64,000 nucleotides of DNA from an uncultured virus (IMG/VR IMGVR_UViG_3300037517_002797) (taxonomy: Duplodnaviria > Heunggongvirae > Uroviricota > Caudoviricetes). Position numbers and translations under genes: made by a program. Shown here in pieces: positions 12,133-64,000 of this stretch (position 1 is the stretch's first letter; each line of letters opens with the position of its first letter). Below the pieces are notes generated by a model. The model was given only the letters and a program-made list of their open reading frames with translations, was not told the DNA's origin and did not search any database. The stretch lies in IMG/VR virus record IMGVR_UViG_3300037517_002797; one strand, written 5' to 3'.

Positions 12133-12185
12133 CTAGCCTAAACGATTAGTATTTGCTTATGCAATTTGTTTACGGCTTAGGTGGA

Positions 12186-13133: not shown

Positions 13134-13150
13134 CGGCGTACAATATTTAG

Positions 13151-14114: not shown

Positions 14115-14156
14115 ACTATTAAGATTTCTACTGATCATGTAGGTTAGTATACCCTC

Positions 14157-14771: not shown

Positions 14772-14780
14772 TATAAATCC

Positions 14781-18395: not shown

Positions 18396-19394
18396 CTAAA
18401 TTGCAATTTTCTTAGTGTAGACCTCGCTCTTAAGCATCATCTGTACTTGCGGATACGAGACCTTGTTGTATAAGTTTATGTATGAAAACGGAGTGTCAAT
18501 AACACTATGTATGTCGCCTTCAAAGTTGTACCAATACGCAGGAGTTGTTCTTATTGCAGTAAACTGTGTGCCAGGCTTTGAAAAGATTCCATTGTAAAAC
18601 GCGGTACCAAGCAGCCCAGCGACATGTTCTGCATTATAGAAAAGTCTAATCTGATCTTGCATTGATATTCCAGAAGGCTGAACAACTGCGTACCCTTGCG
18701 ACATAAAGTAGTCTTCAATTGCGTCCTCAACCCAGGGCTCATTCCAGCGTAATTTTATTTGATCTTTTTTCCACTTTTGTCCAGTGCTTGCGTAGTCTGG
18801 ATGTTTTGGCAATTCTTCACTAACAATTTTTCTTGTCAAAAATATCTTTTTAGGCAGCGACGTGTCTTCAATTGCGTACTGGCTAAAGAACTCTCTAAGC
18901 TCTAGATTTAGCGTAGGAGTCATTCCATAGTCGTGTCTAGGGAAATGTGTGTTTGCTATGATCATTTGGCTGTCATACATTACGACGAGCTTTTCAATAA
19001 GAACAACAGTGTTTTTAAGATCGGTGTCTTTTAGCCTAATTCCATCAAAGCTTTTCATCATGCTAAACACAAGATCATGGACTGGCTTCATGTTTTGGTA
19101 CTTGGGAAAGAAAAAGTGTTCATGATCAATCCACAAGTATTTAGCGTCTTTATCTTTAGTTCTTCTTGTATGTAAAAAGACTGAAAGATACTCTTTAAGA
19201 AAATGAAAGTAATGCGGCACACCAGTGAAAATTACGTATGTTCCATTCAAACATATTGTGTTTTCATCTGCAGTCGTGCCACCAAGAATTACATTCTCAA
19301 AAGTGTACATAACTCCGTTTGGGTCGTCTTCAGCGACAACCCTGTCATATGTAGCACCGTAGTTAAGCAAGTCTGGTGTAGCTTTGTGTGCCAT
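18396..19394 (-). CDS. glycosyltransferase family 61 (DUF563)-like protein
   Basis: HYFHF, KIFLTR, SMQDQIRLFYNA..VAG..GTAFYN.IF. Confidence 0.7.
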   Translation of the reverse strand: MAHKATPDLLNYGATYDRVVAEDDPNGVMYTFENVILGGTTADENTICLNGTYVIFTGVPHYFHFLKEYLSVFLHTRRTKDKDAKYLWIDHEHFFFPKYQNMKPVHDLVFSMMKSFDGIRLKDTDLKNTVVLIEKLVVMYDSQMIIANTHFPRHDYGMTPTLNLELREFFSQYAIEDTSLPKKIFLTRKIVSEELPKHPDYASTGQKWKKDQIKLRWNEPWVEDAIEDYFMSQGYAVVQPSGISMQDQIRLFYNAEHVAGLLGTAFYNGIFSKPGTQFTAIRTTPAYWYNFEGDIHSVIDTPFSYINLYNKVSYPQVQMMLKSEVYTKKIAI

Positions 19395-29234: not shown

Positions 29235-29876
29235 ATGATAACTAACAACAGAGTCTTAATACTTGCTGCTGGAGATGGCTTGCGATGGGGAAACTACCAA
29301 GGCGTCGCTAAGCACTTTATCAATATTGACGGCGAGAAAATCTTGCATCGCACGTGTCGCCAGTTTCTCAGCTACACTGATGACGTGTATGTAGTTGAAA
29401 AGTCCGACGAGTACGTGTATCCAGGAACCAAGCTATTTGTGCCTCCACACGACATCTCCTGGGGAGACTTTGCCAAGTATTGGTCCTCGAGAGAGCTTTG
29501 GTCTTTAGAAAGAACAGTACTTGCATTTGGCGACGTGTACTACACTGATCAAGCCATAGAGAAGATTATGACAACACCGGGCGAGATCATGTGGTTTCTT
29601 CGACACAACCACTCGACAGTTACCGGCGGAAGACCTGAGATCTTTACGCTTGCGTTTGACTCAAGCACACACGCGGTACTTGACCAGCATCTTGAGAGGC
29701 TGATCAAGGGTAAAGTTCCTCCTCCAGGCGGCTGGCGGCTGTACAAAAGTCTTGTCCGTCCGCACTATCAAAACAATAAGATGCATGTTGTTATTGATGA
29801 TGAGACTACCGACTTTGATTTTCCCTACGATCTAGACAATTTTGAGCGTCTAAGACTAGAAAGAAAACAATCGTAA
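29235..29876 (+). CDS. NTP transferase (nucleotidyltransferase) domain protein
   Basis: ILAAGDGLRW, KH...I.GE.IL.R, FGDVYY, DFD.P.D. Confidence 0.75.
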   Translation: MITNNRVLILAAGDGLRWGNYQGVAKHFINIDGEKILHRTCRQFLSYTDDVYVVEKSDEYVYPGTKLFVPPHDISWGDFAKYWSSRELWSLERTVLAFGDVYYTDQAIEKIMTTPGEIMWFLRHNHSTVTGGRPEIFTLAFDSSTHAVLDQHLERLIKGKVPPPGGWRLYKSLVRPHYQNNKMHVVIDDETTDFDFPYDLDNFERLRLERKQS

Positions 29877-29981
29877 AAGCCTTATAAAATAAGGGCCAAA
29901 ACCATATAACCTTAACCTTAATGGTATACAATCTGACTTGTACATTAACAGCAGCAAACCGTTGCTAGATAAGGGTTTCGT

Positions 29982-30680
29982 ATGGCAACTAAGAAGAAAG
30001 AGGTTGCATTCCTCTACGCACGTGTTTCTACGCAAATGCAAGCAAACGATGGCATGTCGTTAGGCGCGCAGGAGCGAGATCTTAAACGAGCAGCCGAACT
30101 TGCTGGATTTACAGATGTAAAAATTCTCCGAGAAGAAGGTCGGTCAGGTAAGTCAATCAAAGGACGACCTGTACTTCGTGACGCACTTGAGAAGTTGGAC
30201 AAAGGCGAGGCGTCTGCGTTGTTTGTGACTAGGATTGATCGCCTTGCTAGATCTACCCAGGACTTTCTTAGCATCGTTGATAGGGCCCATAAAAACGATT
30301 GGCGAATTGTCATGCTTGACCTCAACCTTGACACTGCCAGTTACCAGGGTCGGTTTGTTGTCACAATCATGTCGGCGCTTGCTGAAATGGAACGAGCTAT
30401 CATTGCTGAGCGCCAACGAGATGTCCATAAGGATCGCCGAGAAAAAGGACTTAAGTGGGGAGTAGATCTTGGACCAAAGCGCATGATCTCTGACGAGCTG
30501 TATGAAAAGATCGTAGAGCTTCGCGGACTAGGAATGTCGTACGCAAAAATTGCAAACAAGTTTAATGCTGAAGGTGTACAAACGCCGTTTGAAAAACGCT
30601 GGTACGCTACAACGATAAAGCAGTACATTGACAAAGGCGATAAACAGATTAGGTCAGGGGAGGAAAATCCTCAACCCTGA
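29982..30680 (+). CDS. serine recombinase (resolvase family) with C-terminal HTH
   Basis: YARVST, SG.S...RP.L, RIDRLARS, AEMER..I.ER. Confidence 0.92.
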   Translation: MATKKKEVAFLYARVSTQMQANDGMSLGAQERDLKRAAELAGFTDVKILREEGRSGKSIKGRPVLRDALEKLDKGEASALFVTRIDRLARSTQDFLSIVDRAHKNDWRIVMLDLNLDTASYQGRFVVTIMSALAEMERAIIAERQRDVHKDRREKGLKWGVDLGPKRMISDELYEKIVELRGLGMSYAKIANKFNAEGVQTPFEKRWYATTIKQYIDKGDKQIRSGEENPQP

Positions 30681-35477: not shown

Positions 35478-35552
35478 ACTGTTGGTATTATTCTAAGGTA
35501 GTTTTAAGCACAGAAACGCCTGTGCGCGATTGCGCATGGACTGGAGTTGCAC

Positions 35553-37787
35553 ATGCCTTGGCCAAATGATGTTACAACACGAGTAGTCACTGGAAGCTAT
35601 ACCACTCCGTATGGAAATGCTGCCCGAGGAGTAATTACTTTTACCCCAACTGTGACTGTTGTAGACGCAGAAGATGCCATCATTGTTGCTAGTCCAATTG
35701 CATGTACTCTTGACTCAACTGGCTCTTTTAGCGTAACGCTTCCGTGCACTGATGACACAGACTTAAGCCCGGTTGGTTGGGCCTATCAAGTAAGCGTCAA
35801 CATCTACGGTGTATCTCCGTTTACATTCAACACGTACTTGGTCACAGGTGACGGCTCAGCAGTTGACATCTTTGCAGAAATTATTGATATTCTAAACGCT
35901 GGATCCTATGGCCCAACTGTCTCAACATCACGTGGGTCTATTGGCCCAGTAGGTCCCACAGGACCAACGGGTGCGCCTGGCACTGCATCAAACACTGGTG
36001 CAACGGGTGCAACTGGCGCTACTGGGCCGACAGGACCTACAGGTGCAGCATCAACAGTAACTGGGCCAACTGGACCTGCTGGAACCTCAATAACCATTCT
36101 TGGTTCATATGGGTCACAAGCTGCACTTATCGCAGCGCAGCCAACAGGTAGCGCTGGCCAGGGATACCTGGTAAACGGAGATCTTTATGTTTGGTCAGCA
36201 ACTTCATCTGCCTGGGTAAACGTTGGAAACATCCAAGGTCCTACAGGTTCACAAGGGCCAACAGGAGCAACCGGCGCAGCCTCAACTGTCACTGGACCAA
36301 CAGGCGCGCAAGGGGCTACTGGACCTACTGGAGCAACCGGTGCAGCGAGTACCGTCACTGGACCGACCGGTGCGCAGGGTGCAACTGGTGCAACTGGTGC
36401 AACTGGCGCTGCAAGCACAGTTACTGGACCAACTGGTGCGCAAGGAATTCAAGGAGTAACTGGACCAACTGGTGCAACTGGAGCAACGGGTGCACAGGGA
36501 ATTCAAGGTGCAACCGGTGCAACAGGTGCAACGGGTGCGGCAAGCACTGTCACTGGTCCTACTGGTGCAACTGGTGCGCAAGGAATTCAAGGTGTAACTG
36601 GAGCGACGGGTGCAACCGGTGCAGCAAGCACCGTCACTGGACCAACGGGAGCGACTGGTGCAGCTTCAACTGTCACTGGACCAACAGGTGTTCAAGGAAT
36701 TCAAGGTGTAACGGGACCTACTGGTCCAACTGGTCCAACAGGTGCAACTGGAGCAGCGAGCACAGTCACTGGACCAACAGGAGCAACTGGTGCAGTCGGA
36801 GCAACGGGCGCAACTGGTGCAACGGGAGCAACGGGTGCGGCAAGCACAGTCACTGGACCAACGGGAGCGACGGGAGCAGCGAGCACAGTTACTGGACCAA
36901 CAGGAGCAACTGGAGCAACTGGCGCGCAAGGTGTTACTGGTGCAACTGGAGCAACGGGTACCCAAGGTGTTACGGGACCGACTGGCCCACAAGGTCAATC
37001 GTCTTCGTTCTACGACTACAAGATTAAAACGACTACTACGTCTGGTGACCCAGCGAGTACATTCATTTCTTACAACAACGCTACGCAAACTTCTGCAACG
37101 CAATTACAAATTTCACACATTGACAAAGATGGATATGACATTGACATCTTCCTTGCTCTTATCAAGACTAACGATGTTCTTTACATCCAAGATGCAAACG
37201 ATTCAAACAACTACCAAAAATTCAATGTAACTTCTAACGCTGTTTCACAAACTGGATACGTTGAAGTAGCGGTGTCATTGCTTACAAGCGGTGGAACTGG
37301 AACAACACCAGGTTTTGCAAACAACCATTCAGTTATCTTGGTTTTGATTAACGTTGGTGCAACAGGACCTACTGGGCCTCAAGGTGCAACTGGTCCTACA
37401 GGTGCAGTGGGTGCAGCAAGTACTGTCACTGGACCAACTGGACCGACAGGAGCTGCGAGCACAGTCACTGGACCTACAGGTGCAACGGGTGCGCAAGGAA
37501 TTCAAGGTGTCACTGGACCTACAGGTGCAACTGGTGCAGCGAGCACAGTCACTGGTCCAACTGGTGCGCAGGGTGTTACTGGTCCGACTGGTGCGCAGGG
37601 TGTTACTGGTCCGACTGGTGCAACTGGTGCGGCCTCAACTGTCACAGGTCCAACTGGTGCTACCGGTGCTGCCGGTGCTGCCGGTCCAACTGGACCGACA
37701 GGTGCAGCTTTTATAAATATCGACGGTGGAGATCCGTATACAATATACGGAGGAACCACTGTGATTGATGCAGGAGGAGTAAGCTAA
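35553..37787 (+). CDS. collagen-like fibre/virion protein
   Basis: Ig-like N-terminus, long GPT/GAT/GAQ runs broken by AASTVT, internal globular domain. Confidence 0.85.
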
Positions 37788-40700
37788 TGGCAATCCAAAT
37801 CCAACTTAGGCGAGGTACTGCGGCGCAGTGGTCATCAGCCAGCCCGAACCCAGTGCTTGCCATTGGTGAAATTGGAATCGAGACTGATACAGATCAGTTT
37901 AAGATTGGAGATGGCGTTACCACGTGGAACTCTCTTCCATATGGCGGACTTCAAGGTCCGACAGGCGCGACTGGCCCAACTGGTGCGCAGGGTGTTACTG
38001 GTCCGACTGGTGCAACTGGCGCAACAGGTGCAGCAAGTAGCGTCACTGGCCCAACTGGTGCGACTGGTGCGACTGGTGCGACTGGTGCAACGGGAGCCAC
38101 AGGTGCGGCGGGAACACTTGATCTTCTTAGCGATGTCACGGCTGGATCTCCAGCAAACGGCGACTTGCTTAAGTGGAACGGCACCGCATGGGTTAACTCA
38201 ACCACAATTGAAAGCCTTGTAATTTCTGGCAACTTGACAGTTAGTGGAAACACAACAACTCTCAACACAGAAACTCTTTCAGTCGAGGACAACATCGTTG
38301 TTCTTAACTCAGGTGCAACTGGCTCACCATCGTTGAACGCTGGTATTGAAGTTGAGCGTGGTGACTCAACAAATGTTGTGCTTCGTTGGAATGAAACAAA
38401 TGATAAGTGGGAAGTTACTGAAAACGGTTCAACCTACAGCAACATCACTACAACAGCGTCACTTGAAGCTCGTCTTGCTGCGGATCACTGGCACAGGCCA
38501 GCGTACTACGGGACTACAGAGGCTTTGCCGAACTCGCCGACGTACACTAATGGAACATTAGACGCAGACGGTGGCTATGGAATTGGCGCAAAACTTGAGT
38601 CATCAGCAAACGCCCGTCTTGTTGTAGACAACACACAAGTTTCTACAGGTCAACGCATTCTCGTTGTTAACCAAGCCAACGCAGTGCACAACGGCGTGTA
38701 CACGGTTACAAACCAAGGAAGCGTGTCAGCTAACTGGATCCTTACTCGAGGCGACGGTATGGATGGAACGTGGCCTGGACAAGTCACACCCGGCGAGTCT
38801 ATTTTTGTAAGCGCCGGTGAAATAAATCATGATCAAGGTTTTGCAGTTTCATCAACAGGCACTGGTACTAACGGCGCTCATATATTTGGAACTGATGCAA
38901 TCACGTTTATTCGTTACACTGGAACACAGTCATTCAACGCTGGCGCTGGTCTTGTAGCAAACGCGGCAACAAACAGTCTTGACGTAGTTACAGCAAATAC
39001 TTCGCGAATTGTCGTAAATAGCAACTCAATTGACTTGGCAACAATTACGCCAAGCAACAGTGTTGGCGACGATGGTGCGACATTTATTAAGACAGTAAAC
39101 GTTGATGGATACGGCCGTGTTACTGGAATTACAACGTCAAACGTTGCTATTCAACTTGGATCAAATACAACTGGAGATTATGTAGCAAACATTATTCCTA
39201 GCACAGGTGTGACGATTTCAAACAATGCTGGAGAAGGAGCAAATCCACTAATATCAATTGGACAAGATGTTGCAACAACAGCAAACGTGTCGTTCCACAC
39301 AGTTTCAGCAAACATCACTGGTCCAGTCGCGGGCAACCTGACAGGAAACGTGACAGGAAACGTGACGGGCGACGTGACTGGCAACTTGACGGGCAACGTC
39401 ACTGGAAACGTGAGTGGTAACGCTGGCACTGCAACAACTCTTGCAACGTCACGAACAATTGAGCTAACTGGCGATGTTATTGGTTCTGCATCATTCAATG
39501 GCTCAGCAAACGCAACAATCAGTGCAACAATTGCTGCAAATAGCGTAGCGCTTGGAAGCGATACAACAGGAGATTACACCGCGACCGTAGTTGGCGGAAC
39601 TGGTGTAACAGTTTCGTCAAACACAGGTGAAGCCTCCGCACCTACAATTGCGATTGGTCAGTCTGTAGCAACGTCAGCGAGTCCAACATTCGTAGACATG
39701 AACCTTACTGGCAACGTTGTATTTGAAGGTGCGACAGACAATACTTTTGAGACAACATTGACCGTCGCTGATCCAACAGCCGATAGAACAATTACTCTTC
39801 CAAATGTCTCAGGAACCGTTGTAACAACTGGTGATACTGGTTCGGTAACGAGCACGATGATCCTTGATGGAACAATTGTTGATGCCGACATCAATGCGTC
39901 TGCCGCTATTGACAAAACAAAGATTTCAGGAACAGCAATTACTGCCGGCGACACTGGAACAGTGACCAGCACAATGATTGCTGATGGAACAATCGTTAAT
40001 GGTGACATTAGCGCAAGCGCCGCAATTGCGCACAGCAAGTTGGCAAACGCGACTGCTGGCCAGTTGCTCTTGGGAACAACCACAACCGGTGTTGTTACTG
40101 CGACCACAGTTTCTGGTGACGTGACAATTGATGGAGCCGGCGTAACAGCTATCGCTTCTGGAGTAATCGTAGACGCTGATGTCAATGCATCGGCAGCGAT
40201 TGCAGATACAAAACTTGCAACAATTTCAACAGCAGATAAGGTTTCGCTAGCAGCACTCAACATTGACGGTGGCACAGATATTGGAGCCGCACTTGCTGAC
40301 GCAGACTTGATCATCGTTGATGATGGCGGTGCAGGAACAAACCGCAAGGCCGCAGTTACACGAGTCACAGACTATGTGTTTGGCAAGGTGTCTGGAGACA
40401 TCACAATTGCATCTAATGGTTCAGCAACAATCGCTGCAAACTCTGTTGCTCTTGGGACTGACACAACTGGAGATTACACAGCCACGGTTGTTCCAGGCAC
40501 AGGCGTAACAATCACAAGTAATACAGGTGAAGGTTCAACACCAACTATTGCAATCGGACAAGCGGTATCAAACACGTCGGCAGTTACGTTTGCAACAGTT
40601 ACGACAACTGGCGACCTAACTGTTGGCGCAAACCTCAACCTTACTGGAAACATCAACACGTACACGCAAAACAGCCTGTCAATTGACGATCCATTTATCT

Positions 40701-42139
40701 ACCTAAACAACAACAGCAACATCTCTAACCCGGACCTTGGTATTGCTGGTAACTACAACGATGGCACGTACAAACACACTGGTCTTTTCCGTGACGCAAC
40801 AGATGGTAAGTGGAAGTTCTTCCAAGACTACACTCCAGAGCCTGCAAGCCCGATTGATACAGCAAATGTGTCATACGCGGCAGCACCACTGGTAGTTAGC
40901 ACATTGGACACTACTGCTACTACTGGAACCGCGCCAATCACTGTTATGTCAACAACGCTTGTAGCGAACTTGAACGCCGATCTTCTTGACGGTCAAAGCA
41001 GTGCGTATTTTGCGCCAATAGGCAGCCCAACATTTACTGGAACAGTGACACTGCCAACAGGAACTGTCACAAGCGCAATGATCCTTGATGGAACAATTGA
41101 TAACGCCGACATTAGTACCTCAGCTGCAATTGCTCATACAAAGCTTGCATCCACAACTGCAGCGTTCGTGTTAATGGGCAACGCAACTGGCGTGGTCACT
41201 GGAACTGCAGTCAGTGGTGACGTTACAGTTACAGATGCTGGAGTAACTGCGATTTCATCTGGAGTAGTTGTAAACGATGACATTAATGCATCAGCGGCGA
41301 TTGCACTAAGCAAACTTGCAACTGGCACTGCTGGAAACATTCTGGTTTACAACACAACAGGCGTTCTTACTTCTGTTACAGAGTCAGGCGACGTAACAAT
41401 TTCAGATGCTGGTGTCACAGCCATCGCGTCTGGAGTAATTGTTAATGCAGATGTAAACGATTCAGCAGCGATTGACTTTAGCAAACTTGCAACTCTTACA
41501 AGTGGAAATATCTTGGTAGGTAGCGCAAGCAACGTTGTCACGTCAGTAGCAGTCAGCGGCGACGTAACAATCGCAGCTAACGGTAACGTGCAGATTGCGT
41601 CAGGCGCAATCGTCAACGCAGACATTAGCGCTTCGGCCGCAATTGAGCTCTCAAAACTTGCAACTAGTACTGCTGGAAACATCATTGTGTACGATGCTTC
41701 AGGTGTTCCGACCGCGGTTACTGAGTCTGGTGACGTAGTAATTGACTCATCTGGCGTTACATCAATTAGTGCTGGAGTAATTGTCAACGCGGACATCAGT
41801 GCTACAGCAGCCATTGACCTCGGTAAACTTGCTGATGTCTCGACGAGTGCTCAGACCGCGAGCTACACTCTTCTACTTGCGGATAAGAACAAGGTCGTTG
41901 AAATGAGCGTTGGCTCTGCAAACAACCTTACAGTTCCAACAAACGCAAACGTAGCATATCCACTTGGATCGCAGATCATGGTTCTTCAGACAGGCTCTGG
42001 CCAGACAACAATTGTTGGCCAGGGTGGAGTAACAGTAAACGGTACTCCAGGGCTTAAGCTTCGCACTCAATGGTCTATGGCTACTTTGATTAAGAGAGCT
42101 ACAGATACATGGGTAGCTGTTGGAGACTTGTCAGCCTAG
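37787..42139 (+). CDS. long tail fibre protein
   Basis: [11 protein letters not shown]...[19 protein letters not shown]-terminus, short collagen, GNVT repeats, IVNADI.ASAAI repeats, C-terminal W...GDL. Confidence 0.85.
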
Positions 42140-55343: not shown

Positions 55344-55868
55344 ATGCACGGCGCGGTAACTCAGTGGTTTGGCTATTCACTTAGTCAGATTGCGGCTCGA
55401 GAGAGTATAAAGAAAACTGGGAACAACGTTCTTGAGATCGGAAGTCTTGACATTAATGGCAGCATTAAGTCAATGTTCAGTGAACTTACTTCTGAAGGTG
55501 GATCATACCTTGGAATTGATCTTCAAGAAGGCCCTGGTGTAGACATTGTTGTTGACGGGGTGGCGTTTAGAAGCGATACACCGTTTGACATCATCGTGTG
55601 TGCTGAGGTATTTGAGCATACTCCAGTATGGCCGTCAATCATTGCTAATGCGTACAACCACCTTGTTCCCGGTGGATTTTTCATTGCAACGATGGCAGGA
55701 GAAGGACGACCACCTCACTCAGCTATAGATGAGAATCCAATTCGTAGTTGGGAATACTACAAGAATGTTACAGCAACAGAATTAGCGCAGTACCTGCAGA
55801 TATTCGCAGATGGCGAAGTAAACGTCCAAGACACCGATACTAGGTGCTGGGCTGTGAAGCAGTCTTAA
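55344..55868 (+). CDS. SAM-dependent methyltransferase
   Basis: VLEIGS.DING, YLGID...GPGVD, FDIIVC.EVFEH, L.PGG. Confidence 0.85.
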   Translation: MHGAVTQWFGYSLSQIAARESIKKTGNNVLEIGSLDINGSIKSMFSELTSEGGSYLGIDLQEGPGVDIVVDGVAFRSDTPFDIIVCAEVFEHTPVWPSIIANAYNHLVPGGFFIATMAGEGRPPHSAIDENPIRSWEYYKNVTATELAQYLQIFADGEVNVQDTDTRCWAVKQS

Positions 55869-56385
55869 GCTTTTTTACTTTCTTTTCTTTAGCTTTTTCT
55901 TTTTCGTTCTTTTTCTTTTCATCACGCGTTTCACGGTCAGAGTGGTACGCAGTTACGGCGTTAGCGCTAGTGCGGCTACGCCACACGAACTGGCACTCAT
56001 CACAAACTACAAGCTTCATTTTTGTCCACCGTCCGCCTTCTGGTGAGTCAGCAACAACTACCCTAAGCTTATTAGGGCGACCACCGCAATGAGGGCAGTT
56101 TGGAAATCTTTTACGTCTAACTTCTTGGCCAGTGTATGAAACGGACAATGCACGACGAAGTTCTCCTTCATCTTTTCCACCCCACACGCCATGTATTTGT
56201 TTATTTTCAAGAGCCCACTTAAGGCATTGACTTCTTACTGGACATGTGTAGCATAAGTTTTTAGCTGCGTACTTTTCTTTTGGAACTTTTGAGAACCAGT
56301 ACTTCTTAATGTGTGCGTTTTCTGGCTGTGCGCATGCGGCATCGTCCATCCACGCCACGTCGCTCAAGCCTCCAGGCTTTTTCAC
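55840..56385 (-). CDS. whiB: WhiB family regulator with C-terminal zinc ribbon
   Basis: WMDDAAC, AKNLC.TCPV...C, GVWGG; then CPHC...CDEC and basic tail. Confidence 0.85.
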   Translation of the reverse strand: MKKPGGLSDVAWMDDAACAQPENAHIKKYWFSKVPKEKYAAKNLCYTCPVRSQCLKWALENKQIHGVWGGKDEGELRRALSVSYTGQEVRRKRFPNCPHCGGRPNKLRVVVADSPEGGRWTKMKLVVCDECQFVWRSRTSANAVTAYHSDRETRDEKKKNEKEKAKEKKVKKLKTASQPST

Positions 56386-56720
56386 GTAATTTCAACCCAC
56401 ACAACCTCGTGAATTGAATCAACAATGTCACCAAGCTGTGTTTCGCCATCTTCGTTGCACGCATACTTTTCGTGCGAACCGTCAACCGTACCTGCGTAAC
56501 CGTAGCTTGTCTTTGCATTTTCTATCTTTTTGAAAGCGTCACCAAGAGAATCAACTACTCCGTCGCGTTGAATTGCAGATGCGAGCGCTCGTTTGACTAT
56601 CTCGTGCTCAGTGTCAACGTGATCTTCTGTGTAAAAGACGACAGTAGAACTATTATAAGTTCTGTAGCCTTCTCCAGACCATTCTGACCATAGGCACTCG
56701 CCTTTTCTTGAATCCTTCAT
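56382..56720 (-). CDS. hypothetical protein
   Basis: GTGA coupled to whiB. Confidence 0.7.
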   Translation of the reverse strand: MKDSRKGECLWSEWSGEGYRTYNSSTVVFYTEDHVDTEHEIVKRALASAIQRDGVVDSLGDAFKKIENAKTSYGYAGTVDGSHEKYACNEDGETQLGDIVDSIHEVVWVEIT

Positions 56721-56836
56721 GCGTATAGCATTGTATCTCGCATTCTAGTGATTCCTGGTCACGTCTAATTTATAGATGCTTAGACGACTATCACACCATT
56801 TTTAAGAGCTTCTAGTGAATGTAGAAGCGTCTCAGA

Positions 56837-57343
56837 TTAGTTTGCGTAGCCGTCCTGATGAGGCCATAAGTAGTCGTAGGTTGGTGGCTGCTCACCAGTG
56901 TCCTCTGGCCAACCAAACTGCTTGTACCACTCATAATTTTTGCAAAGCAGCGCGGTGCGGTGAGTAGAGCACAAATCTGCGTAGTACTTTGCATCTGCCA
57001 TCCATGGTGGAACAATTAGCTCTGACGATATGCGACCAAGCTCAAGAGCCTTGTCGTAGGTGCGGTACGTCTTATCAAGAAGTGTTGACTTGTAACCGCG
57101 CGAGATCCACTCAAAGTATGTCGCTGAGATGTACGAAACAAATAGCGTCTCGTAGCCGCGCCACATACGGACAACTGGATGGTTTGTCCAGCCTTTAGGC
57201 TCGCGATGCTCGTTGTTCGGGTCGAGCTTGCACATTGTCATAAGGCACTGCCATGCCTCGAGCGTCTGCTTATGCAGTCGCTTATTGTCGAGATGATGGG
57301 CCGTAAGCTCGAATGACTCGGTGTTTGTAAGAAATGATTGCAT
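56837..57343 (-). CDS. MSMEG_6728-like protein (pyrimidine dimer glycosylase superfamily)
   Basis: MQSFL...LD.KRL.KQ..E..Q, W.NHP.V.MW.G, PPW, HR..LL.K...Y, Y.WP. Confidence 0.8.
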   Translation of the reverse strand: MQSFLTNTESFELTAHHLDNKRLHKQTLEAWQCLMTMCKLDPNNEHREPKGWTNHPVVRMWRGYETLFVSYISATYFEWISRGYKSTLLDKTYRTYDKALELGRISSELIVPPWMADAKYYADLCSTHRTALLCKNYEWYKQFGWPEDTGEQPPTYDYLWPHQDGYAN

Positions 57344-57411: not shown

Positions 57412-58659
57412 CTAGCTTTCTTTTGTGTAGTACTTCTTCTTAACTGCCTGGCGGCTAAAGCCTTTGTCTGTATTGACTAACCACTCGCGGTCGCCGATTA
57501 GTTCGCCCTGCGGGCCATTTGGCTGTCCTTCAAGTGATGCCTTTGCAGCGTCAGCAATCCATTCAGCGGCCTGTACTGCAACTGCCTTGCCCCAAGTTGC
57601 AGACAACGGCGAGTAGTCTTTTGCGGCAGCGAATTCCCAGTCGTCTGGAAGACCCTGCAGTCGTGCAGCTTCGCGGTGAGTAATGCGACGCTCGAGTGTT
57701 GGGTGGATCACGTGATCAAGTGCACCGCCTGTCATAACGTGCGCCCACGAGTTTCCATCCCAACGGCACGGCATCGTAAATCCCATGTTGAAGTCACTGG
57801 CACGAAGCTTTTCTTCTTGTGCAAGCCAAGCCTGTGGAAACTGGTCGTTGTTCTTTGCGACAGCTTCTCGAAGCGCCTTGCTTACTGGAGTCATTGGCTT
57901 CCAACCATCGTTTCCAAGAATGTCAAAGATTTCTTTGATGCGCTGTCCTTCAAGGTTTGTTTTGTTGATGTGTCCGTCAACTACGCCACTTTCATTGCGA
58001 AGGTGCTCAACAAACTTTGATGGAGCCTTTCTGTACGGCTGCGGATCCCATGACATGTCGAGATCCTCAAGGTCACCAATTACGTCCATCATTGTTGGCA
58101 TTTCTGCTGGTGCAATTGCCTCTGCACCGAATGGCATTCCTTTTTCAACAGCAGTCCAGAAGTAACGCATGCGGTATGAAAAACCACCAACCTGAAGGTT
58201 GTTCATCTTGACATGGTACAGGTCATATTCTTTTCCAGAAAGCTCTTCAACCATGTCGCGGTACTTAATCATTGCATCGCGCCCTTGAGTAAGCGCCTGT
58301 TGCACGCATTCAAAGATAATCATCTTCGGCTTGATGCGCGCGGCGTACTTCATAAATGCGCGAGTGTGCTCGTGTGCCTTTGCGTCAGGACCGCGGTTTG
58401 CAGGGCCAGACCACACCGACCAACCAGAGCATGGAGGGCAGCCAAGTACGATGTCGGCTTTGTTGTCTGGCCATTCATTTGGATCATCTGAAAAGAATGA
58501 AGACCAGTTGTCGCCAAGATGCTTGCGGTTTAGCTCAGCAACACGGTTGCCAAAGTTCAAAGTTCCTGTGCGGACATTCATATCAATGCCCTTGTTTACA
58601 AAGCCAAGGCTCATAAAGCCAGCGAGGCCGTTGCAGTCGTTAAAAGTAAATTCTGACAT
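57412..58659 (-). CDS. C5-cytosine DNA methyltransferase homologue with non-canonical cofactor motifs
   Basis: GCPPCSGWS (IV), FECV (VI), RMR (VIII), REAARLQG.PD (IX), GKAV (X). Confidence 0.85.
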   Translation of the reverse strand: MSEFTFNDCNGLAGFMSLGFVNKGIDMNVRTGTLNFGNRVAELNRKHLGDNWSSFFSDDPNEWPDNKADIVLGCPPCSGWSVWSGPANRGPDAKAHEHTRAFMKYAARIKPKMIIFECVQQALTQGRDAMIKYRDMVEELSGKEYDLYHVKMNNLQVGGFSYRMRYFWTAVEKGMPFGAEAIAPAEMPTMMDVIGDLEDLDMSWDPQPYRKAPSKFVEHLRNESGVVDGHINKTNLEGQRIKEIFDILGNDGWKPMTPVSKALREAVAKNNDQFPQAWLAQEEKLRASDFNMGFTMPCRWDGNSWAHVMTGGALDHVIHPTLERRITHREAARLQGLPDDWEFAAAKDYSPLSATWGKAVAVQAAEWIADAAKASLEGQPNGPQGELIGDREWLVNTDKGFSRQAVKKKYYTKES

Positions 58660-58719
58660 GTGTTCTCCGTTGTTGCCGTTTATTCAACTGTATCCGGTGA
58701 CGCCAGAAAAAGTGGTAAC

Positions 58720-59001
58720 TTACTTTTCGCCTACTTCGTACCCGCAGGCAGCGTAGCCAGCGATATCTACCCAGGTATCTGGTTGGAATCCAGACTTAGA
58801 AGCGTATCTGGCCACTTTTACAGCAACCATCGCCATAGCAACATCTTCTTGAGTAACTTCAATTCCAAAGATTACTGACCATAGTTTGGCAATTCTTGTA
58901 AAGTTCTCTTCTGGACCGCCGTACTGCGCATCGCGCTGGCCAGTGATAATCGTGGCTGCTTCGTCCAAACAGCGAGTTCTTCCATTCTTAGCTTTCGTCA
59001 T
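58720..59001 (-). CDS. DUF6378-like protein
   Basis: L.EA..II.G.R...YG....NF.RIA.LW...VA..M...K.AR...D.WVD.AGY. Confidence 0.8.
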   Translation of the reverse strand: MTKAKNGRTRCLDEAATIITGQRDAQYGGPEENFTRIAKLWSVIFGIEVTQEDVAMAMVAVKVARYASKSGFQPDTWVDIAGYAACGYEVGEK

Positions 59002-59191
59002 TTTCTACCTTTGTTCTTACATATACTGTTGCTTTATAGTCATTTGACGCCGATGGCTCAATGTGTATTTCGGTATCATGCGGAAGTTCAATTTCGTCGT
59101 TTTCCATAAATTCTTTCCAATTTCTCAACGCCTGCTCTTTTATCTCTTCTAGCGTTGATCCAAATACTTCAAATTCAATTGCTGCTCTCAT
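58988..59191 (-). CDS. small acidic protein
   Basis: Coupled in operon. Confidence 0.65.
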   Translation of the reverse strand: MRAAIEFEVFGSTLEEIKEQALRNWKEFMENDEIELPHDTEIHIEPSASNDYKATVYVRTKVENDES

Positions 59192-59427
59192 GCGAGTGCT
59201 CTTTTCTCCAGTGAGTATGGTGAGTGATGTGTTTCTGGTAATTCTGGAAGTATGCCATCAATGCTGCGAACAATCACGTCGCCTCCACCAACTGCAAGTA
59301 CTTCGCAAAAGCGTCCGTTGTGTATTTCTCCAACGACACCTTGGTATGCGTTTAGTTTGACGCGAACAATGTCGCCAACGTTTGTATCTTTTAGCGATAC
59401 TTCACTCCAAGTTACTTCTGAGGACAT
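59188..59427 (-). CDS. small SH3/KOW-like protein
   Basis: VGDIVRV...G..CEV pattern; GGAGG RBS. Confidence 0.55.
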   Translation of the reverse strand: MSSEVTWSEVSLKDTNVGDIVRVKLNAYQGVVGEIHNGRFCEVLAVGGGDVIVRSIDGILPELPETHHSPYSLEKRALA

Positions 59428-59873
59428 TGCGCCTCCGGGCATGTTGAAGTGTCAAAGTCGTCAAGAGCTCGAGTGCATGTGCTGCACTTTACGCCGTCAG
59501 CTTTGACCTTGTATCCTTTAAGTTGACGCTGTCTGTTTACTTCCATTTTGTTGACGTAGTACTCATCAAGTTGCTCGTCAGTTCCACCTACAGCACAAAT
59601 GATATTGGCAACGAAGTGAAGAATATCTACGCATTCCTTGACTACTGCATCACGGTTTACATATGGATCATCATGTTGCCAAGGCTTCCATGAGATTTCC
59701 TTGCGAACTTCCGCAAGCTCGTCGTCAATCGCAAGCATGTTCCAGCGCAGGTACTCGATGATGTTGTTGAGCTTGTACGGTTGATCGCCTTCAAACTTAT
59801 GATAAATGACTCCGTACGCTTCTTCTTGAAGCTCTTTTGTTTTCTTGAGCCAATCGTTGAATAGTATGCCCAT
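59412..59873 (-). CDS. all-alpha dNTP pyrophosphatase (dimeric dUTPase/MazG-like)
   Basis: DELAE...WKPW...ECVDILHF...Y..K...N..RQ..GY. Confidence 0.8.
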   Translation of the reverse strand: MGILFNDWLKKTKELQEEAYGVIYHKFEGDQPYKLNNIIEYLRWNMLAIDDELAEVRKEISWKPWQHDDPYVNRDAVVKECVDILHFVANIICAVGGTDEQLDEYYVNKMEVNRQRQLKGYKVKADGVKCSTCTRALDDFDTSTCPEAQCPQK

Positions 59874-60877
59874 TAGATTCCTATCTCTCCTTTTAGATGA
59901 TTTACTGCGTGTACAGGGTTGCGAACCACGTTGACATATTGCTCTCGCTGAGCAACTGCAATTTCATATCTATCAAGCGCCGACATTTCTTCTATTCCAG
60001 CCGCTAGATGATTCCAGTCTTTACCGATAGTTGAGCTAATGCGCCACTCTGTTGCAATTGGAGTAAGCGCGTTCATTGCTTGAATAAACAATGGAGACCA
60101 CCACAACAACTTATCATTGTGTGGACCGATAAGCACTCCAAGTGAGTTTGACACTTTTTCAACAACGTGCTCGTCTGTCCAGGTTCTGCTTTCTTTGGCT
60201 ACGTCTGTTGGGTACATTAAATGTTCAGCAGTGTCAATGCACCATTTAGCCTTCGTGTTTCCAACAATCCAATAGTTCTGCCTGTTCTTTAGTGCCATGC
60301 CGTCTTCAATAAATATTGAATCAAGGTTTACGCCAGAGAAAGAACTGTTCATTGACTCTGGAATACCTGGAGAGTCAGACACGCTCTGATCTACTGGAAG
60401 CTTTGGGTAGATAGTTTTTGGCCATTTTTCAGAAAGCAATATTTTTGCTCCAGCGATCACTTTGTCTTTTGATTTTTTATTTTGCGTGACTTCTTTGAAT
60501 TCTTTTCTTGACGAGTATAGTTGCTTTACCAACCGCGAGTTTTCTTTGTCAATTGACCTAAGGCTCGCATGGATCTTAGTAGGCTCTGGCGCATCTACAA
60601 ATAGTCTAAGCTTTTTACTTCCATACAGTGTGGCAATTAGCGCAAGAATTCCGTATGTCTTGTTTGCAGTCATACTGAGCATCGGTGCAACGCCTGCAAG
60701 AACTACGTCATACTCGTCAAAATCTTTTTTTGTCCACAAAACGCTAGGGTCTGCCCAAACAACCTCGTGCCCGTCTTTAGTAAGAGCATAGTCAATTGAA
60801 CCGGCAAAAGAAAAGTTTCGCCGACTTAAAGCCTGTGAAGATTGCGACGCAGTCATTCCGCATATTAGCACTTTCAT
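59873..60877 (-). CDS. putative GT-B glycosyltransferase-like protein
   Basis: MKVLICG, GHEVVW, YDVVL, late QAM...TPI; operon context. Confidence 0.45.
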   Translation of the reverse strand: MKVLICGMTASQSSQALSRRNFSFAGSIDYALTKDGHEVVWADPSVLWTKKDFDEYDVVLAGVAPMLSMTANKTYGILALIATLYGSKKLRLFVDAPEPTKIHASLRSIDKENSRLVKQLYSSRKEFKEVTQNKKSKDKVIAGAKILLSEKWPKTIYPKLPVDQSVSDSPGIPESMNSSFSGVNLDSIFIEDGMALKNRQNYWIVGNTKAKWCIDTAEHLMYPTDVAKESRTWTDEHVVEKVSNSLGVLIGPHNDKLLWWSPLFIQAMNALTPIATEWRISSTIGKDWNHLAAGIEEMSALDRYEIAVAQREQYVNVVRNPVHAVNHLKGEIGI

Positions 60878-61605
60878 ACTAGGTCACCGTTCTTGCTTGC
60901 AATGTACGCAGACGGTATCCCGACATCAAAAGCTTTGACATCATACAGATGCGTTGGCCATCGCATAATTGTATTTAGGTATGGACCAATTTTCATTTCA
61001 GAAGACTCTTTGCGATTAGCCCATTCATTTGACAGTATGTCAAAAGCTCTGCTTGTTTGAAATACTACTGGACCGCACCATACCTTTACGTTTCCATCAA
61101 TCCAAATATCGTCTATTCCGACTGCTGTTCCTTCAACAAACTTATAGTTTTCGTTGTCGTTTTGCGCGTGCTGGATTCTTGTAAACCGAGAAGCCTGCTC
61201 AAGAGTCACTGTTCGGACTCCGATTGCGTCGGTCTGGTTTACTCTACTGTTAAAAGCCATGTCAACTACAATGTCTTGATCCATCACATTGTCGCTCATA
61301 AGCAGCATTGTTTGATCGTGAACCGCGTCAGACAGTCCGATCATTGTCGCGTGTCCTGGCCCTGCTGGTTCTTCTTGAACAACAAGTCGTACCCATTTTG
61401 AATACGAAGAAAGCGCTTCACTAATGTCGTTGTAGTTTGCACTAGAAGCAACAACAGTTACTCGCTCAACTCCAGAAGCAGAGGCGTATTCAACAGCATA
61501 AGCAACCAAAGGCATGCCATTGATCTCAAGCAGAGGCTTGTAGAACGGCTTTGCCAGTCCTTCCATACGCTGACCACGGCCTGCGGCAAGGATTACTGCT
61601 TCCAA
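60874..61605 (-). CDS. sugar-phosphate nucleotidyltransferase
   Basis: AVILAAGRGQRM, KPLLEING.P, QEEP.G.GHA, DVG.P. Confidence 0.85.
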   Translation of the reverse strand: MEAVILAAGRGQRMEGLAKPFYKPLLEINGMPLVAYAVEYASASGVERVTVVASSANYNDISEALSSYSKWVRLVVQEEPAGPGHATMIGLSDAVHDQTMLLMSDNVMDQDIVVDMAFNSRVNQTDAIGVRTVTLEQASRFTRIQHAQNDNENYKFVEGTAVGIDDIWIDGNVKVWCGPVVFQTSRAFDILSNEWANRKESSEMKIGPYLNTIMRWPTHLYDVKAFDVGIPSAYIASKNGDLV

Positions 61606-62111
61606 CGCCAGTCCTGCTTTGCCCAGATGAAGTCCCAGCCTGCTTCTTCTGCAGGACCTTTTCCTTCAATTCTGTCGTCAATGTACACACCAGACGAGTC
61701 AAGGCTTTCAAGTATTTCCTTGCGAGCGTCAGTTGTAACACTTGCAGCTACGAGATTGTCAGCATTAAGTCCAAGCTCTTGAAGTATCACAGTTGCAGTT
61801 GCTTTTGCAGCGCCAGTGACATAAAAAACTCGAGCTCGCATATCGTGCTCAAGCGCACGCATAATTTCAGCAAACGGAAGCGCATTCTTTAGTGCCGCGC
61901 CTGCGCGAAGTACCTCGATGTACGCCTCTGTCTTCTTTTCATGAAGCCTGCGAGCTTTTTCGTGCGACCCAACCGCAGAAGGCAGCCATGTCTGCCACGG
62001 GTGGCCCCAGGCTTGCATCGGCATTTCAATTCCAACGTACTTGTAAGACTCGATGACTAAGCTTCGAGAGTCAACGAGAACTCCGTCAATGTCTGAACAC
62101 CATGTTGCCAT
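61593..62111 (-). CDS. HAD superfamily phosphatase
   Basis: DIDGVLVDS, VTG, YIDD. Confidence 0.85.
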   Translation of the reverse strand: MATWCSDIDGVLVDSRSLVIESYKYVGIEMPMQAWGHPWQTWLPSAVGSHEKARRLHEKKTEAYIEVLRAGAALKNALPFAEIMRALEHDMRARVFYVTGAAKATATVILQELGLNADNLVAASVTTDARKEILESLDSSGVYIDDRIEGKGPAEEAGWDFIWAKQDWRWKQ

Positions 62112-62113
62112 AC

Positions 62114-62875
62114 TTAATTCCTTTCAATAGCTCTGTGTAGTACTTCAATTACGCGAGGCAGCGAGTCGGGTATGTTTCGTTTGACATACGGAATTGCACG
62201 CATTACGTGAACAACCGCCCATGCCTCTCCAACCTCAAATAGCTCTTCATCATTTACAATGTCTGCAATGTCATTGTGGCTGTACGCAAGCATTCCATTG
62301 TTGTACTTGGCGTGCTCCCATCCATAGGCGCTTTGAAGCATTTTGCCAACATCAACAGCAGGAGAGTCTGGTACGACTTCAGTTGCTCTGATTGGATCAA
62401 TCAACACGTTGCCATAGCCAAGACGAAACATGACATTTTCTGCCGTAGGATCCCCGTGAGTCAATGCATGCTTGAGTCTGTACGCGCCTACAGCCGCTTT
62501 TGTTGCGTCTGCAATGATAGCGTCGGCTGCAGTGCTACTGATAAGTCCAGAAAGATGACGATCAATAGTTGCTTGCATCTTTTCTTTAAGAAGATTATGT
62601 GTGTTTGTCGTTGGCGGAACCACCGCGGGCTGCGACCACACATGGCGAAGAAGAGCTACGTGAACAAATGAGTTGTCAATATTCCAGTAGTCAATGTACT
62701 CAAGCTTTTCCATGACATAGCCATCGTCAAGAAGACTGACAATGCTTGGAAAAACATGACTTCCATGCTGAATGATCCATTCGCCTTGCTCGCGTGTTCG
62801 CTCTGGAATTCCACCTGACTTGGTAACAGTGCCATCGCCATTATCAATGACAATGGCGCCAGATAGACCCCTCAC
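62114..62875 (-). CDS. APH/choline kinase-like phosphotransferase
   Basis: GLSGA, Y.ME, HGDPT.ENV, LIDP, DVGKM.QS. Confidence 0.8.
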   Translation of the reverse strand: MRGLSGAIVIDNGDGTVTKSGGIPERTREQGEWIIQHGSHVFPSIVSLLDDGYVMEKLEYIDYWNIDNSFVHVALLRHVWSQPAVVPPTTNTHNLLKEKMQATIDRHLSGLISSTAADAIIADATKAAVGAYRLKHALTHGDPTAENVMFRLGYGNVLIDPIRATEVVPDSPAVDVGKMLQSAYGWEHAKYNNGMLAYSHNDIADIVNDEELFEVGEAWAVVHVMRAIPYVKRNIPDSLPRVIEVLHRAIERN

Positions 62876-64000
62876 GAGAAAGCGCTTTCAATCAATATCT
62901 CTGCACTCTTGCGTGGATCATTTCGTGTCCTAAGTACTTCGCGGTTGTGCTTTGCGATACTAAAGCGATCAGCATCTGAAATCTCAAGACATTGTTCAAA
63001 CGCTTCTTTGCACTTGCGAATAATCTCAAGGCCGTCTTCTTTAACCAATCGTGATTGCGTTGGCGATCCTTTGTACCAGTCAAGAACAAGCATTCTGAAC
63101 TGTGGATCAGATAAGTGACCTGGGACAATGCACATTGCACCAGCGTCTGCTGCCTCGAGCGACGAATACTCAACAAGTCCTCGTGCAAAATTGTGCGCAG
63201 TAAGGTTCATGTGAACACGGAACCTTGATGCAATAGCTGCTGAGTCCATGTAGTTTCCAAGATAGCGAACTAGCGCGTGTCCAGGAATTCGTGCGTCCCA
63301 CGGGTAAGGCGTGATGATGTTTCCATCAGCGCCCTTTGTTGGATCAACACGCTGAGCATAGCGTTTTGTCTGCGCTCCAAAGTGGTCACGAAGTTGCTCG
63401 TAGACAATGTATGTTGGCGATGGACCAAGCCCTACTGAACACGATCCCCAGATTTCAACAGTGACGTGCTCTGGAAGCTGTGCGCCGGCCAATGCAACAA
63501 CTGGCTGTCCCTTGTTGTATATGAAGCGCCCAGAGGTGCCAACAGTCCAGTCATTTGTTATCGGCGCGTCAATGTCAAACTTTGGAATGTATGGCATGCA
63601 GCCTTTGATCCAGTCCATTGACTTAAAAAGCTCATTGCTATCTCGAGCAGAGTCATCGCTCATCGTGACGAGTTTTGCGCCTCGTGACGGCGACTCAAGA
63701 AGCTGCGGCACGAATGGAATGTCTTTTTCTGGATAAAACGATCCATGAAGTGACGTAGTCCACTTTGTCTTTGTTCTGCGCAATGCATCAACGTATTCTG
63801 GAAGCACTGGCTGGCCAGTCTTCGCGGATTCTTTGATTGCTGTTTTGTCGTGCAATGGCACCTTAATTTCAGGAAGCACAATCATGTCATAGGTGTCAAG
63901 CGTCTCAACAAGATGCGCTGTCTTTACAACAACATCTGGCGCTTCACTCCACCATCGGCCACCTGGTTGTGGCTTTCCCCAAGATGCTCGGGTCTTTCCA
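62872..64000 (-). CDS. putative GT-B glycosyltransferase, 5' end outside window
   Basis: Frame open to window edge; SGRF..NKG, EYSSLEAADAG. Confidence 0.6.
   Translation of the reverse strand, partial: GKTRASWGKPQPGGRWWSEAPDVVVKTAHLVETLDTYDMIVLPEIKVPLHDKTAIKESAKTGQPVLPEYVDALRRTKTKWTTSLHGSFYPEKDIPFVPQLLESPSRGAKLVTMSDDSARDSNELFKSMDWIKGCMPYIPKFDIDAPITNDWTVGTSGRFIYNKGQPVVALAGAQLPEHVTVEIWGSCSVGLGPSPTYIVYEQLRDHFGAQTKRYAQRVDPTKGADGNIITPYPWDARIPGHALVRYLGNYMDSAAIASRFRVHMNLTAHNFARGLVEYSSLEAADAGAMCIVPGHLSDPQFRMLVLDWYKGSPTQSRLVKEDGLEIIRKCKEAFEQCLEISDADRFSIAKHNREVLRTRNDPRKSAEILIESAFS

Follow-up and report, generated by a model that had tools for sequence, protein, structure and literature searches.

A putative cytosine hydroxymethylation and glycosylation gene cluster in an uncultured freshwater actinophage

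Gene layout of the cluster

I analysed a 64,000-nucleotide stretch of DNA from an uncultured tailed phage (IMG/VR record IMGVR_UViG_3300037517_002797), hereafter called the window. Its last 6.6 kb (57412–64000) is filled by ten minus-strand open reading frames (ORFs) that overlap or abut, and mapping of their junctions confirmed what the first-pass annotation of the window had described. Together, these genes make up the distal portion of a long operon for replication and nucleotide metabolism in an uncultured actinophage from fresh water. It is likely that the operon encodes a T4-like pre-replicative pathway for 5-hydroxymethylcytosine (5hmC), followed by DNA glycosylation by two new families of GT-B glycosyltransferases (GTs), together with an optional phage-encoded module that makes a nucleoside diphosphate (NDP)-sugar. 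The ten genes are listed below from the window's end inwards.

62872 to beyond 64000, minus strand: GT1like, a GT-B (GT4-like, retaining-type) glycosyltransferase whose predicted acceptor is DNA; its 5′ end lies outside the window
62114–62875, minus strand: APH-fold kinase (Pfam APH, 2.4e-5); predicted substrate, a sugar or sugar phosphate
61593–62111, minus strand: HAD-superfamily phosphatase, possibly a phosphomutase (Pfam Hydrolase, 1.6e-6)
60874–61605, minus strand: sugar-1-phosphate nucleotidyltransferase (Pfam NTP_transf_3, 9.7e-15; NTP_transferase, 4.4e-12)
59873–60877, minus strand: GT2like, a GT-B glycosyltransferase with T4 beta-glucosyltransferase (BGT) as its probable nearest structure
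59412–59873, minus strand: all-alpha nucleoside triphosphate (NTP) pyrophosphatase of the dimeric-dUTPase/MazG-like type, a candidate dCTPase/dUTPase (Pfam dUTPase_2, 2.1e-11)
59188–59442, minus strand: conserved ORF of 84 amino acid residues (aa), syntenic across related loci with 40–100% identity
58988–59191, minus strand: conserved 67-aa ORF, syntenic across related loci
58720–59001, minus strand: DUF6378 protein (Pfam DUF6378, 4.4e-29)
57412–58659, minus strand: atypical METHYLTRANSFERASE, a C5-cytosine-methyltransferase (C5-MTase)-like protein (Pfam PF00145, 8.6e-23)

Successive ORFs overlap by 4, 13, 4, 1, 31, 4, and 14 nucleotides, and one junction is a 2-nucleotide gap. The sole larger gap, 60 nucleotides, lies ahead of the MTase-like gene. 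The APH-like kinase, HAD, nucleotidyltransferase, dUTPase/MazG-like, DUF6378, and C5-MTase families had been named earlier, and all of these calls are borne out by Pfam matches, while the 84-aa and 67-aa ORFs between the dUTPase-like gene and the DUF6378 gene had been missed. These two small ORFs have no family match in Pfam, PHROGs, and NCBIfam scans. The PHROG label of the DUF6378 protein is "phosphofructokinase", an untested annotation. GT1like is truncated by the window end, with 375 of its 416 residues inside. Its full length was taken from a 99%-identical protein, P0020 (416 aa), and the homologues are 412–416 aa long. A promoter and terminator scan returned 5 promoter-like sites against 9.9 expected and was uninformative.

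The upstream genes and a predicted dCMP hydroxymethylase

The first-pass annotation had stated that the operon continues beyond the window and had pointed to the upstream sequence as the place to look for a thymidylate synthase or a hydroxymethylase. The upstream content was read from IMG/VR contigs that match the window with 99–100% identity in each gene they have in common with it, and the operon does continue on them. The order is a thymidylate kinase (TMK)-like kinase, a ThyA-like enzyme, dCMP deaminase, PolA, an SNF2 helicase, a PD-(D/E)XK nuclease, AAA_24, DUF669, and GT1like. Thus, a ThyA homologue is present just past the window with the TMK-like kinase and the dCMP deaminase adjacent to it, and it has the residue signature of a dCMP hydroxymethylase, as described below. 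The start of the ThyA homologue overlaps the end of the kinase gene, which is located as follows.

L038:861–1886, beyond the window end: thymidylate-kinase-like kinase, 341 aa

The sole PDB match of this kinase is YorR, which is also the structure given for the nucleotide kinase gp78 of phage DLP3 in PMC13326640. Residues 7–163 alone match kinase models; about 180 further C-terminal residues are without a family or PDB match.

The best PDB match of the ThyA homologue is the CMP hydroxymethylase MilA (1.4e-18). When the protein was aligned to thymidylate synthases, it was found that Cys146 is kept in a PC motif, Leu143 is replaced by Asp, Asp169 is kept, and Asn177 is replaced by Asp. This D/D/D pattern, together with the catalytic Cys, occurs in all 20 loci holding the site. 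According to PMC13326640, N177D in the ThyA family indicates dCMP as the substrate, L143D or L143E indicates a product other than the methylated one, and D169N is characteristic of 5-hydroxy-dCMP synthases. The last replacement is absent here, since the motif is SND in 20 of 20 loci, compared with SQN in RB69 gp48. The D/D/D pattern is also present in T4 gp42 and in the homologues of two cultured actinophages, Kurnik and Phendrix, while RB69 gp48 has E/N/D. Both Asp replacements (positions 143 and 177) are found in MilA as well. In a BLASTP comparison with T4 gp42, the ThyA homologue gave an E-value of 3e-12, and an MRSNDV motif is common to the two proteins. Thus, the D/D/D signature predicts that the product is 5-hydroxymethyl-dCMP, not dTMP or 5-hydroxy-dCMP. 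Moreover, a relative of 116.8 kb that is 87% complete carries a bona fide ThyX (2.4e-55). Therefore, the ThyA homologue is not the thymidylate synthase of that relative and is not needed for dTMP there. ThyX was not found within the window. A Tet_JBP profile had matches in 0 of 4 contigs, but the controls were equally silent and the search is uninformative.

Inside the window, the all-alpha NTP pyrophosphatase (NTPase) matches the PHROG dUTPase family (2.2e-21) and, weakly, dimeric dUTPases in the PDB (0.003). It also has a local BLASTP similarity to the T4 gp56 dCTPase (1e-7, 40% identity over 42 aa).

The glycosyltransferases and the proposed donor cassette

GT1like and GT2like have no Pfam, PHROGs, or NCBIfam match, and their comparison with PDB sequences gave chance matches only. 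They had been called "GT-B-like" and "second GT-like", and a comparison of their folds with the T4 alpha-glucosyltransferase (AGT) and BGT had been proposed. AlphaFold2 models of the two proteins (one built on 19 homologues, the other on 43) were confident, with predicted local distance difference test scores of 90.7 and 92.6 and a predicted template modelling score of 0.89 each. Both are clear GT-B folds: each has a pair of Rossmann-like domains and can be matched along its full length to GT-B enzymes of solved structure. T4 BGT heads the structural matches of the GT2like model and is probably its nearest structure; the sequence-profile comparison of the two in hhalign gave a probability of 0.9%. 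In a language-model feature search with GT2like, clusters of PF09198 (T4 BGT) made up 4 of the 30 matches, while no Pfam family, PF09198 included, was matched at E <= 0.01. In view of the hhalign result, GT2like is not a sequence-level member of GT63/PF09198. The top structural matches of the GT1like model are tied, and they are retaining GT4 enzymes including T4 AGT, PimA, BshA, TarM, and HepE. The anomeric configuration is retained by GT4 enzymes and T4 AGT and inverted by T4 BGT. Thus, the GT1like/GT2like pair parallels the alpha/beta pair of T4. Synteny and fold together suggest that 5hmC in DNA would be the acceptor. The isoelectric points of the two proteins, compared with those of T4 AGT and BGT, were not discriminating.

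GT2like diverges faster than its neighbours. It is 69% identical in the related locus L008, where the flanking genes are 90–98% identical; across L008 and L010 it is 68–69% identical, and the flanking genes are mostly 88–99% identical. The pattern suggests that this one gene has undergone local recombination or diversifying selection. It would be consistent with an arms race over the displayed sugar and is silent on the acceptor.

Between the two GT genes lie the kinase, HAD, and nucleotidyltransferase genes, which the first-pass annotation had taken for an NDP-sugar-making set. The APH E-value of the kinase is barely past the curated cut-off. Its HGDPTAEN and IDP motifs and K19 are kept unchanged by 11 of 11 relatives. 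The hhalign match of the kinase to RB69 ORF052c, the kinase part of AfhE, spans 165 columns, among them the catalytic loop, with 58.6% probability (E 9.5e-5). The nucleotidyltransferase aligned to RB69 ORF053c with 62.6% probability (E 7.2e-5); its LAAGRGQRM motif is invariant in the aligned relatives, and its NCBIfam matches (archaeal GlmU, AglF, MurU, and HddC) are all under the cut-off. The HAD protein has D7, D9, T99, D145, and D146 in common with 10 of 10 relatives, and a mutase role is possible. As a side observation, L020:6309–6824 has a stop codon inside the HAD gene, in a stretch aligned to the entire protein; this gene may be a pseudogene or may reflect a sequencing error.

Comparison of the kinase with the PDB, both as a single sequence and as a profile, gave chance matches only, and a tblastn search against 50,697 phage records gave no match. 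A hidden Markov model search of 1.84 billion representative proteins with the kinase yielded 586 relatives, among which there are three fusion forms. P0183 (487 aa) has an N-terminal nucleotidyltransferase followed by the kinase, which is the AfhE architecture. P0186 (362 aa) has an N-terminal MazG-like domain. In P0105 (683 aa), the kinase stands behind a GT1like protein 60% identical to P0020; this fusion could be a gene-calling artefact, as the GT1like and kinase genes overlap by 4 nucleotides. In a set of 5.8 billion proteins, a search for kinase relatives of greater length and fused form found none. In the window, the nucleotidyltransferase and the kinase are unfused, and the HAD gene separates them. 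PMC13326640 describes how AfhE (an APH-like kinase fused to a nucleotidyltransferase) and the HAD phosphatase AfhF of phages RB69, DLP3, and HY126 convert arabinose-5-phosphate to the 1,5-bisphosphate, then to the 1-phosphate, and finally to UDP-arabinose, with which the DNA is arabinosylated. The trio resembles this experimentally characterised NDP-arabinose module, in agreement with the role that had been assigned to it. Judged by its sequences, it looks like a split AfhE/AfhF-type NDP-sugar module minus the isomerase. The sugar phosphate that it starts from probably belongs to the host's metabolism.

Is the arrangement conserved in other phages? The search for related loci yielded 44 IMG/VR loci, many of them near-duplicates. 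The conserved order is GT1like, kinase, HAD, nucleotidyltransferase, GT2like, NTPase, the 84-aa ORF, the 67-aa ORF, DUF6378, and the MTase-like gene, followed by a pyrimidine-dimer glycosylase, a hypothetical protein, and WhiB. The kinase is directly behind GT1like in 32 of the 44 loci. In seven loci the cassette is absent and GT1like abuts GT2like, in one locus GT1like abuts the NTPase gene, and the remaining four end too soon to judge. The lake phage DSL-LC01 has a UDP-galactopyranose mutase (GLF, 5e-30) and a different GT at the cassette position, before its GT2like homologue. The presence or absence of the cassette and the mutase of DSL-LC01 thus indicate that the donor module is exchangeable around a fixed core.

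The core was also found in cultured phages. Behind the same replication genes, Micrococcus phage Kurnik has a GT1like protein (36% identical), two other GTs, a MazG-like protein, and an MTase-like protein, and it also encodes a ThyA homologue with the D/D/D pattern. In the Phendrix/GodonK group of Gordonia phages, a GT2like homologue (25% identical, Foldseek TM 0.76) occurs alongside two GTs, a MazG-like protein, an MTase-like protein (36% identical, 4e-71), and WhiB, while a pair of kinase and D/D/D ThyA genes is located elsewhere in the genome. Thus, the core module, in which GTs are joined by a MazG-like NTPase and by a C5-MTase-like protein that has Lys for Asn in motif X, recurs in cultured Micrococcus and Gordonia phages. 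Within the limited literature searched, there was no report of modified DNA in these actinophages. The papers on DSL-LC01 and on Nanopelagicales phages treat GTs in general terms only in their accessible portions.

One of the closest known systems is the glucosyl-hydroxymethylcytosine system of T4, which consists of the dCMP hydroxymethylase gp42, the gp1 kinase, the gp56 dCTPase, alpha-gt, and beta-gt. The two systems are alike in the Cys/L143D/D169/N177D pattern with MRSNDV, in an all-alpha NTPase with local similarity to gp56, in two GT-B proteins (one probably nearest to BGT, the other tied with AGT among its matches), in the location among replication genes, and in the presence of a dCMP deaminase. 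They differ in that GT1like and GT2like have no detectable sequence homology to AGT or BGT, the kinase is thymidylate-kinase/YorR-like and not gp1-like, and the host is actinobacterial. Moreover, T4 uses host UDP-glucose, whereas here the kinase/HAD/nucleotidyltransferase cassette is added, as is a C5-MTase-like gene.

The same parts list is found in the arabinosyl-5-hydroxycytosine clusters of RB69, DLP3, and HY126: a ThyA homologue with a TMK-like kinase next to it, GT-B proteins, an APH-fold kinase, a HAD protein, and a nucleotidyltransferase. According to PMC13326640, these clusters encode a 5-hydroxy-dCMP synthase, a TMK-like kinase, GTs, AfhE, AfhF, and an arabinose-5-phosphate isomerase, and their GT-B transferases have structural matches of the BshA/PimA type. 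In the present cluster, in contrast, D169 is kept, so that 5-hydroxymethylcytosine is predicted and not 5-hydroxycytosine; the kinase and the nucleotidyltransferase are unfused, the HAD protein showed no specific relation to gp51 beyond the superfamily, and no isomerase was found. The sugar is probably not arabinose from ribulose-5-phosphate. The proposed hexosyl-cytosine cluster of Rhizobium phage RL38JI has a phage UDP-galactopyranose mutase, which is matched in the relative DSL-LC01 and not in the window, but its synthase is of the D169N 5-hydroxy type (both points from PMC13326640).

Competing explanations and phage context

The likely pathway would run as follows. The all-alpha NTPase (59412–59873) would convert dCTP and dUTP to monophosphates, and the ThyA-family enzyme just past the window would convert dCMP to 5-hydroxymethyl-dCMP. 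The adjacent TMK-like kinase, with host enzymes, would raise this product to the triphosphate, which the phage family-A polymerase would incorporate. After replication, GT1like (GT4/T4-AGT-like) and GT2like (T4-BGT-like) would add sugars onto the hydroxymethyl group. The three genes between them would make a phage-specific NDP-sugar out of a host sugar phosphate, either by kinase, HAD phosphatase, and nucleotidyltransferase in this order, as in AfhE/AfhF, or by phosphatase, anomeric kinase, and nucleotidyltransferase. The MupP/AmgK/MurU recycling route consists of a phosphatase, an anomeric kinase, and a nucleotidyltransferase, and by this analogy the second order may fit equally well. The first-pass annotation had proposed that the phage makes its own nucleotide-activated donor and attaches it to a modified pyrimidine as anti-restriction armour. 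The ThyA signature, the GT folds, and the RB69-like trio support this proposal in general, with DNA as the predicted acceptor, and the modified pyrimidine is now predicted from the sequence to be 5hmC made ahead of replication. The sugars may serve to protect the DNA against host nucleases, and an anti-restriction purpose would be in line with this. Gene families, folds, active-site signature, and synteny were observed directly; DNA as the acceptor, the nature of the sugar, the sequence of the steps, and the protection are inferred.

Several points weigh against this pathway. The ThyA homologue lies outside the window and is tied to the phage solely via the near-identical contigs, and its residue diagnostics rest on one paper plus the alignments made here. 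In hhalign, a 19-sequence profile of GT2like showed no sequence relation to T4 BGT (0.9% probability), GT1like was only weakly related to T4 AGT (14.9%), and the HAD protein showed no sequence relation to RB69 gp51 (0.8%), with which it shares the superfamily. No SIS sugar-phosphate isomerase was found in the 73 scanned window ORFs or in five related contigs that are 50–87% complete; the controls of this search were positive in 14 of 14 genomes, and the genomes searched are incomplete. The window also contains other GTs and collagen-like fibre genes, and protein glycosylation is plausible in this genome. The main loose end is the conserved C5-MTase-like enzyme, which would be without a substrate if every cytosine were substituted at C5; a purely T4-like model leaves its linkage to the GTs unexplained.

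Could the GTs and the NDP-sugar cassette act on something other than DNA? The acceptor might be the collagen-like fibres or other virion proteins, host envelope glycans, or teichoic acids, with the ThyA homologue and the NTPase serving nucleotide supply only; if it were the host envelope, superinfection exclusion would be a candidate purpose. The window has collagen-like proteins, about a dozen prolyl-hydroxylase-type 2-oxoglutarate (2OG) oxygenases, and GTs of the GT2+TPR, Anp1-like, and GT61 types. Among the tied matches of GT1like, PimA, BshA, TarM, and HepE use lipids, small molecules, or wall polymers, one JGI record labels a GT1like homologue as "involved in cell wall biosynthesis", and sequence profiles link neither GT to T4 AGT or BGT. 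However, the GT pair lies within the replication and nucleotide operon, while the fibre and oxygenase genes are on the other strand with GTs of their own. The linkage to the MazG-like NTPase and the C5-MTase-like gene is maintained in distant cultured actinophages, T4 BGT heads the structural matches of GT2like, and the ThyA signature is that of a hydroxymethylase, not of a thymidylate synthase. I therefore consider a non-DNA acceptor unlikely.

The MTase-like protein deserves a separate look. It had been called an atypical C5-MTase, and both halves of this call hold. It scored 81.7 bits against PF00145 (cut-off 22), matching profile positions 53–322 of 324. In alignment with M.HaeIII, it has motif IV GCPPCSGWS with the catalytic PC, motif VI FECV (ENV-like), motif VIII RMRYF, motif IX, and motif X GKAV. 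On the other hand, motif I is degenerate (CNGLAG) and lacks the FxGxG pattern, and the Pfam and PDB alignments omit the first 57–61 residues or so. In motif X, Lys replaces the usual Asn in 12 of 12 relatives including Kurnik, and likewise in Phendrix. The motif-X Asn of C5-MTases contacts the cofactor. In CmoX of Synechococcus phage S-B43, which belongs to the CmoA/CmoX/CmoY 5-carboxymethylcytosine system, the equivalent residue (the HhaI-N304 position) is Arg350, which binds the extra carboxyl group of carboxy-S-adenosylmethionine (Cx-SAM), and PMC12783734 defines CmoX by an SPPC motif plus Arg at this position. The present protein shares with CmoX a basic residue in place of the motif-X Asn. 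As a candidate CmoX it was rejected: the motif is CPPC and not SPPC, the residue is Lys and not Arg, motif I is degenerate, none of the window ORFs was recognised as CmoA, and no amide ligase was recognised nearby.

Two further readings give this protein a part in the modification. In a composite one, actinophages from lake to culture share an unrecognised system in which the two new GT families put a new sugar, made by the split cassette, on 5hmC, while the MTase-like protein, not itself a methyltransferase, adds a second C5 adduct, for example via an analogue of S-adenosylmethionine (SAM) or by acting on 5hmC. This is speculative and quite unlikely. In the other, the MTase-like enzyme installs the handle after replication, with SAM or a SAM analogue in a CmoX-like manner, the GTs or other enzymes elaborate it, and the ThyA homologue has a lesser or separate role. 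No other gene accompanies the GTs and the MazG-like gene as constantly as the MTase-like gene does, in freshwater, Micrococcus, and Gordonia phages alike. Its motif-X Lys with Arg350 as the CmoX counterpart (PMC12783734), its degenerate motif I, and the N-terminal part missing from the Pfam match also speak for this reading. Nevertheless, this reading is very improbable. Apart from the CPPC motif and the lack of a recognised CmoA (the sole nearby class-I methyltransferase, at 55344–55868, has only a weak UbiG match), a carboxymethyl or methyl group is no obvious acceptor for a GT, and a hydroxyl handle is already available from the D/D/D ThyA homologue and the kinase coupled to it.

Finally, that the ThyA homologue is a dCMP methylase or a plain thymidylate synthase, leaving at most 5-methylcytosine or T in the DNA and the GT genes as unrelated neighbours, would agree with the "thymidylate synthase" annotation in records and PHROGs and with the adjoining dUMP-feeding dCMP deaminase, but it is highly improbable, as all 20 loci share with T4 gp42 and MilA an Asp at position 143 in place of Leu and another at position 177, the dUMP/dCMP switch, in place of Asn, a relative also encodes ThyX, and T4 itself has a dCMP deaminase.

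Almost all known cases of glycosylated cytosine come from phages that infect Gram-negative bacteria (T-even, RB69-like, Rhizobium, and Shewanella phages). If the 5hmC glycosylation pathway is true, this strategy extends to actinobacterial phages, including ones that recur in lake-water metagenomes. It would comprise two GT families missed by every sequence library searched, a portable donor-synthesis cassette that relatives have swapped or dropped, and an odd methyltransferase relative alongside. Cultured relatives exist in Micrococcus phage Kurnik and in Gordonia phages Phendrix, GodonK, and others. Hypermodified DNA would bear on the recovery of such phages by sequencing and on their escape from restriction and CRISPR, and new DNA glycosyltransferases would be useful tools for epigenetic labelling.

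The gene content of the window is actinophage-like, with two WhiB genes, collagen-like fibre genes, a primase-helicase, a B12-dependent ribonucleotide reductase, and lysis genes, and its nearest named record is Actinomycetia phage DSL-LC01, which was assembled from a lake metagenome. Thus, the host looks like an actinobacterium. The 31-mers sampled from 57412–64000 were all present in contigs of 20 lake-water metagenome runs from 2020–2024. The phage seems to recur in lake water, although some of the runs may be the source sample or belong to one campaign. Downstream of the cluster on the same strand, 55840–57343 encodes a T4 DenV-type pyrimidine-dimer DNA glycosylase (1.5e-12), a 112-aa ORF, and a WhiB-like regulator with a DUF6300-like tail, which are syntenic in relatives.

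The collagen-like genes form a region of their own. Two large collagen-repeat proteins are encoded at 35547–37787 and 37787–42139, the second of which has an Mtd_N tropism-determinant domain. They are followed, up to 55868, by about ten genes for prolyl-hydroxylase-type 2OG-Fe(II) oxygenases, two glutathione-peroxidase-like genes, and a DUF6065 gene, as well as by genes for an Anp1-like GT, a GT2+TPR protein, and the class-I methyltransferase. Machinery for collagen hydroxylation and glycosylation is known from giant viruses, and this region looks like dedicated hydroxylation and glycosylation machinery for collagen-like tail fibres. Further unusual cargo at 12153–15659, 18396–19394, and 29235–30680 includes a fatty-acid desaturase, a staphylococcal-nuclease homologue, two further 2OG oxygenases, a GT61 glycosyltransferase, a second short nucleotidyltransferase-like ORF, and a serine recombinase.

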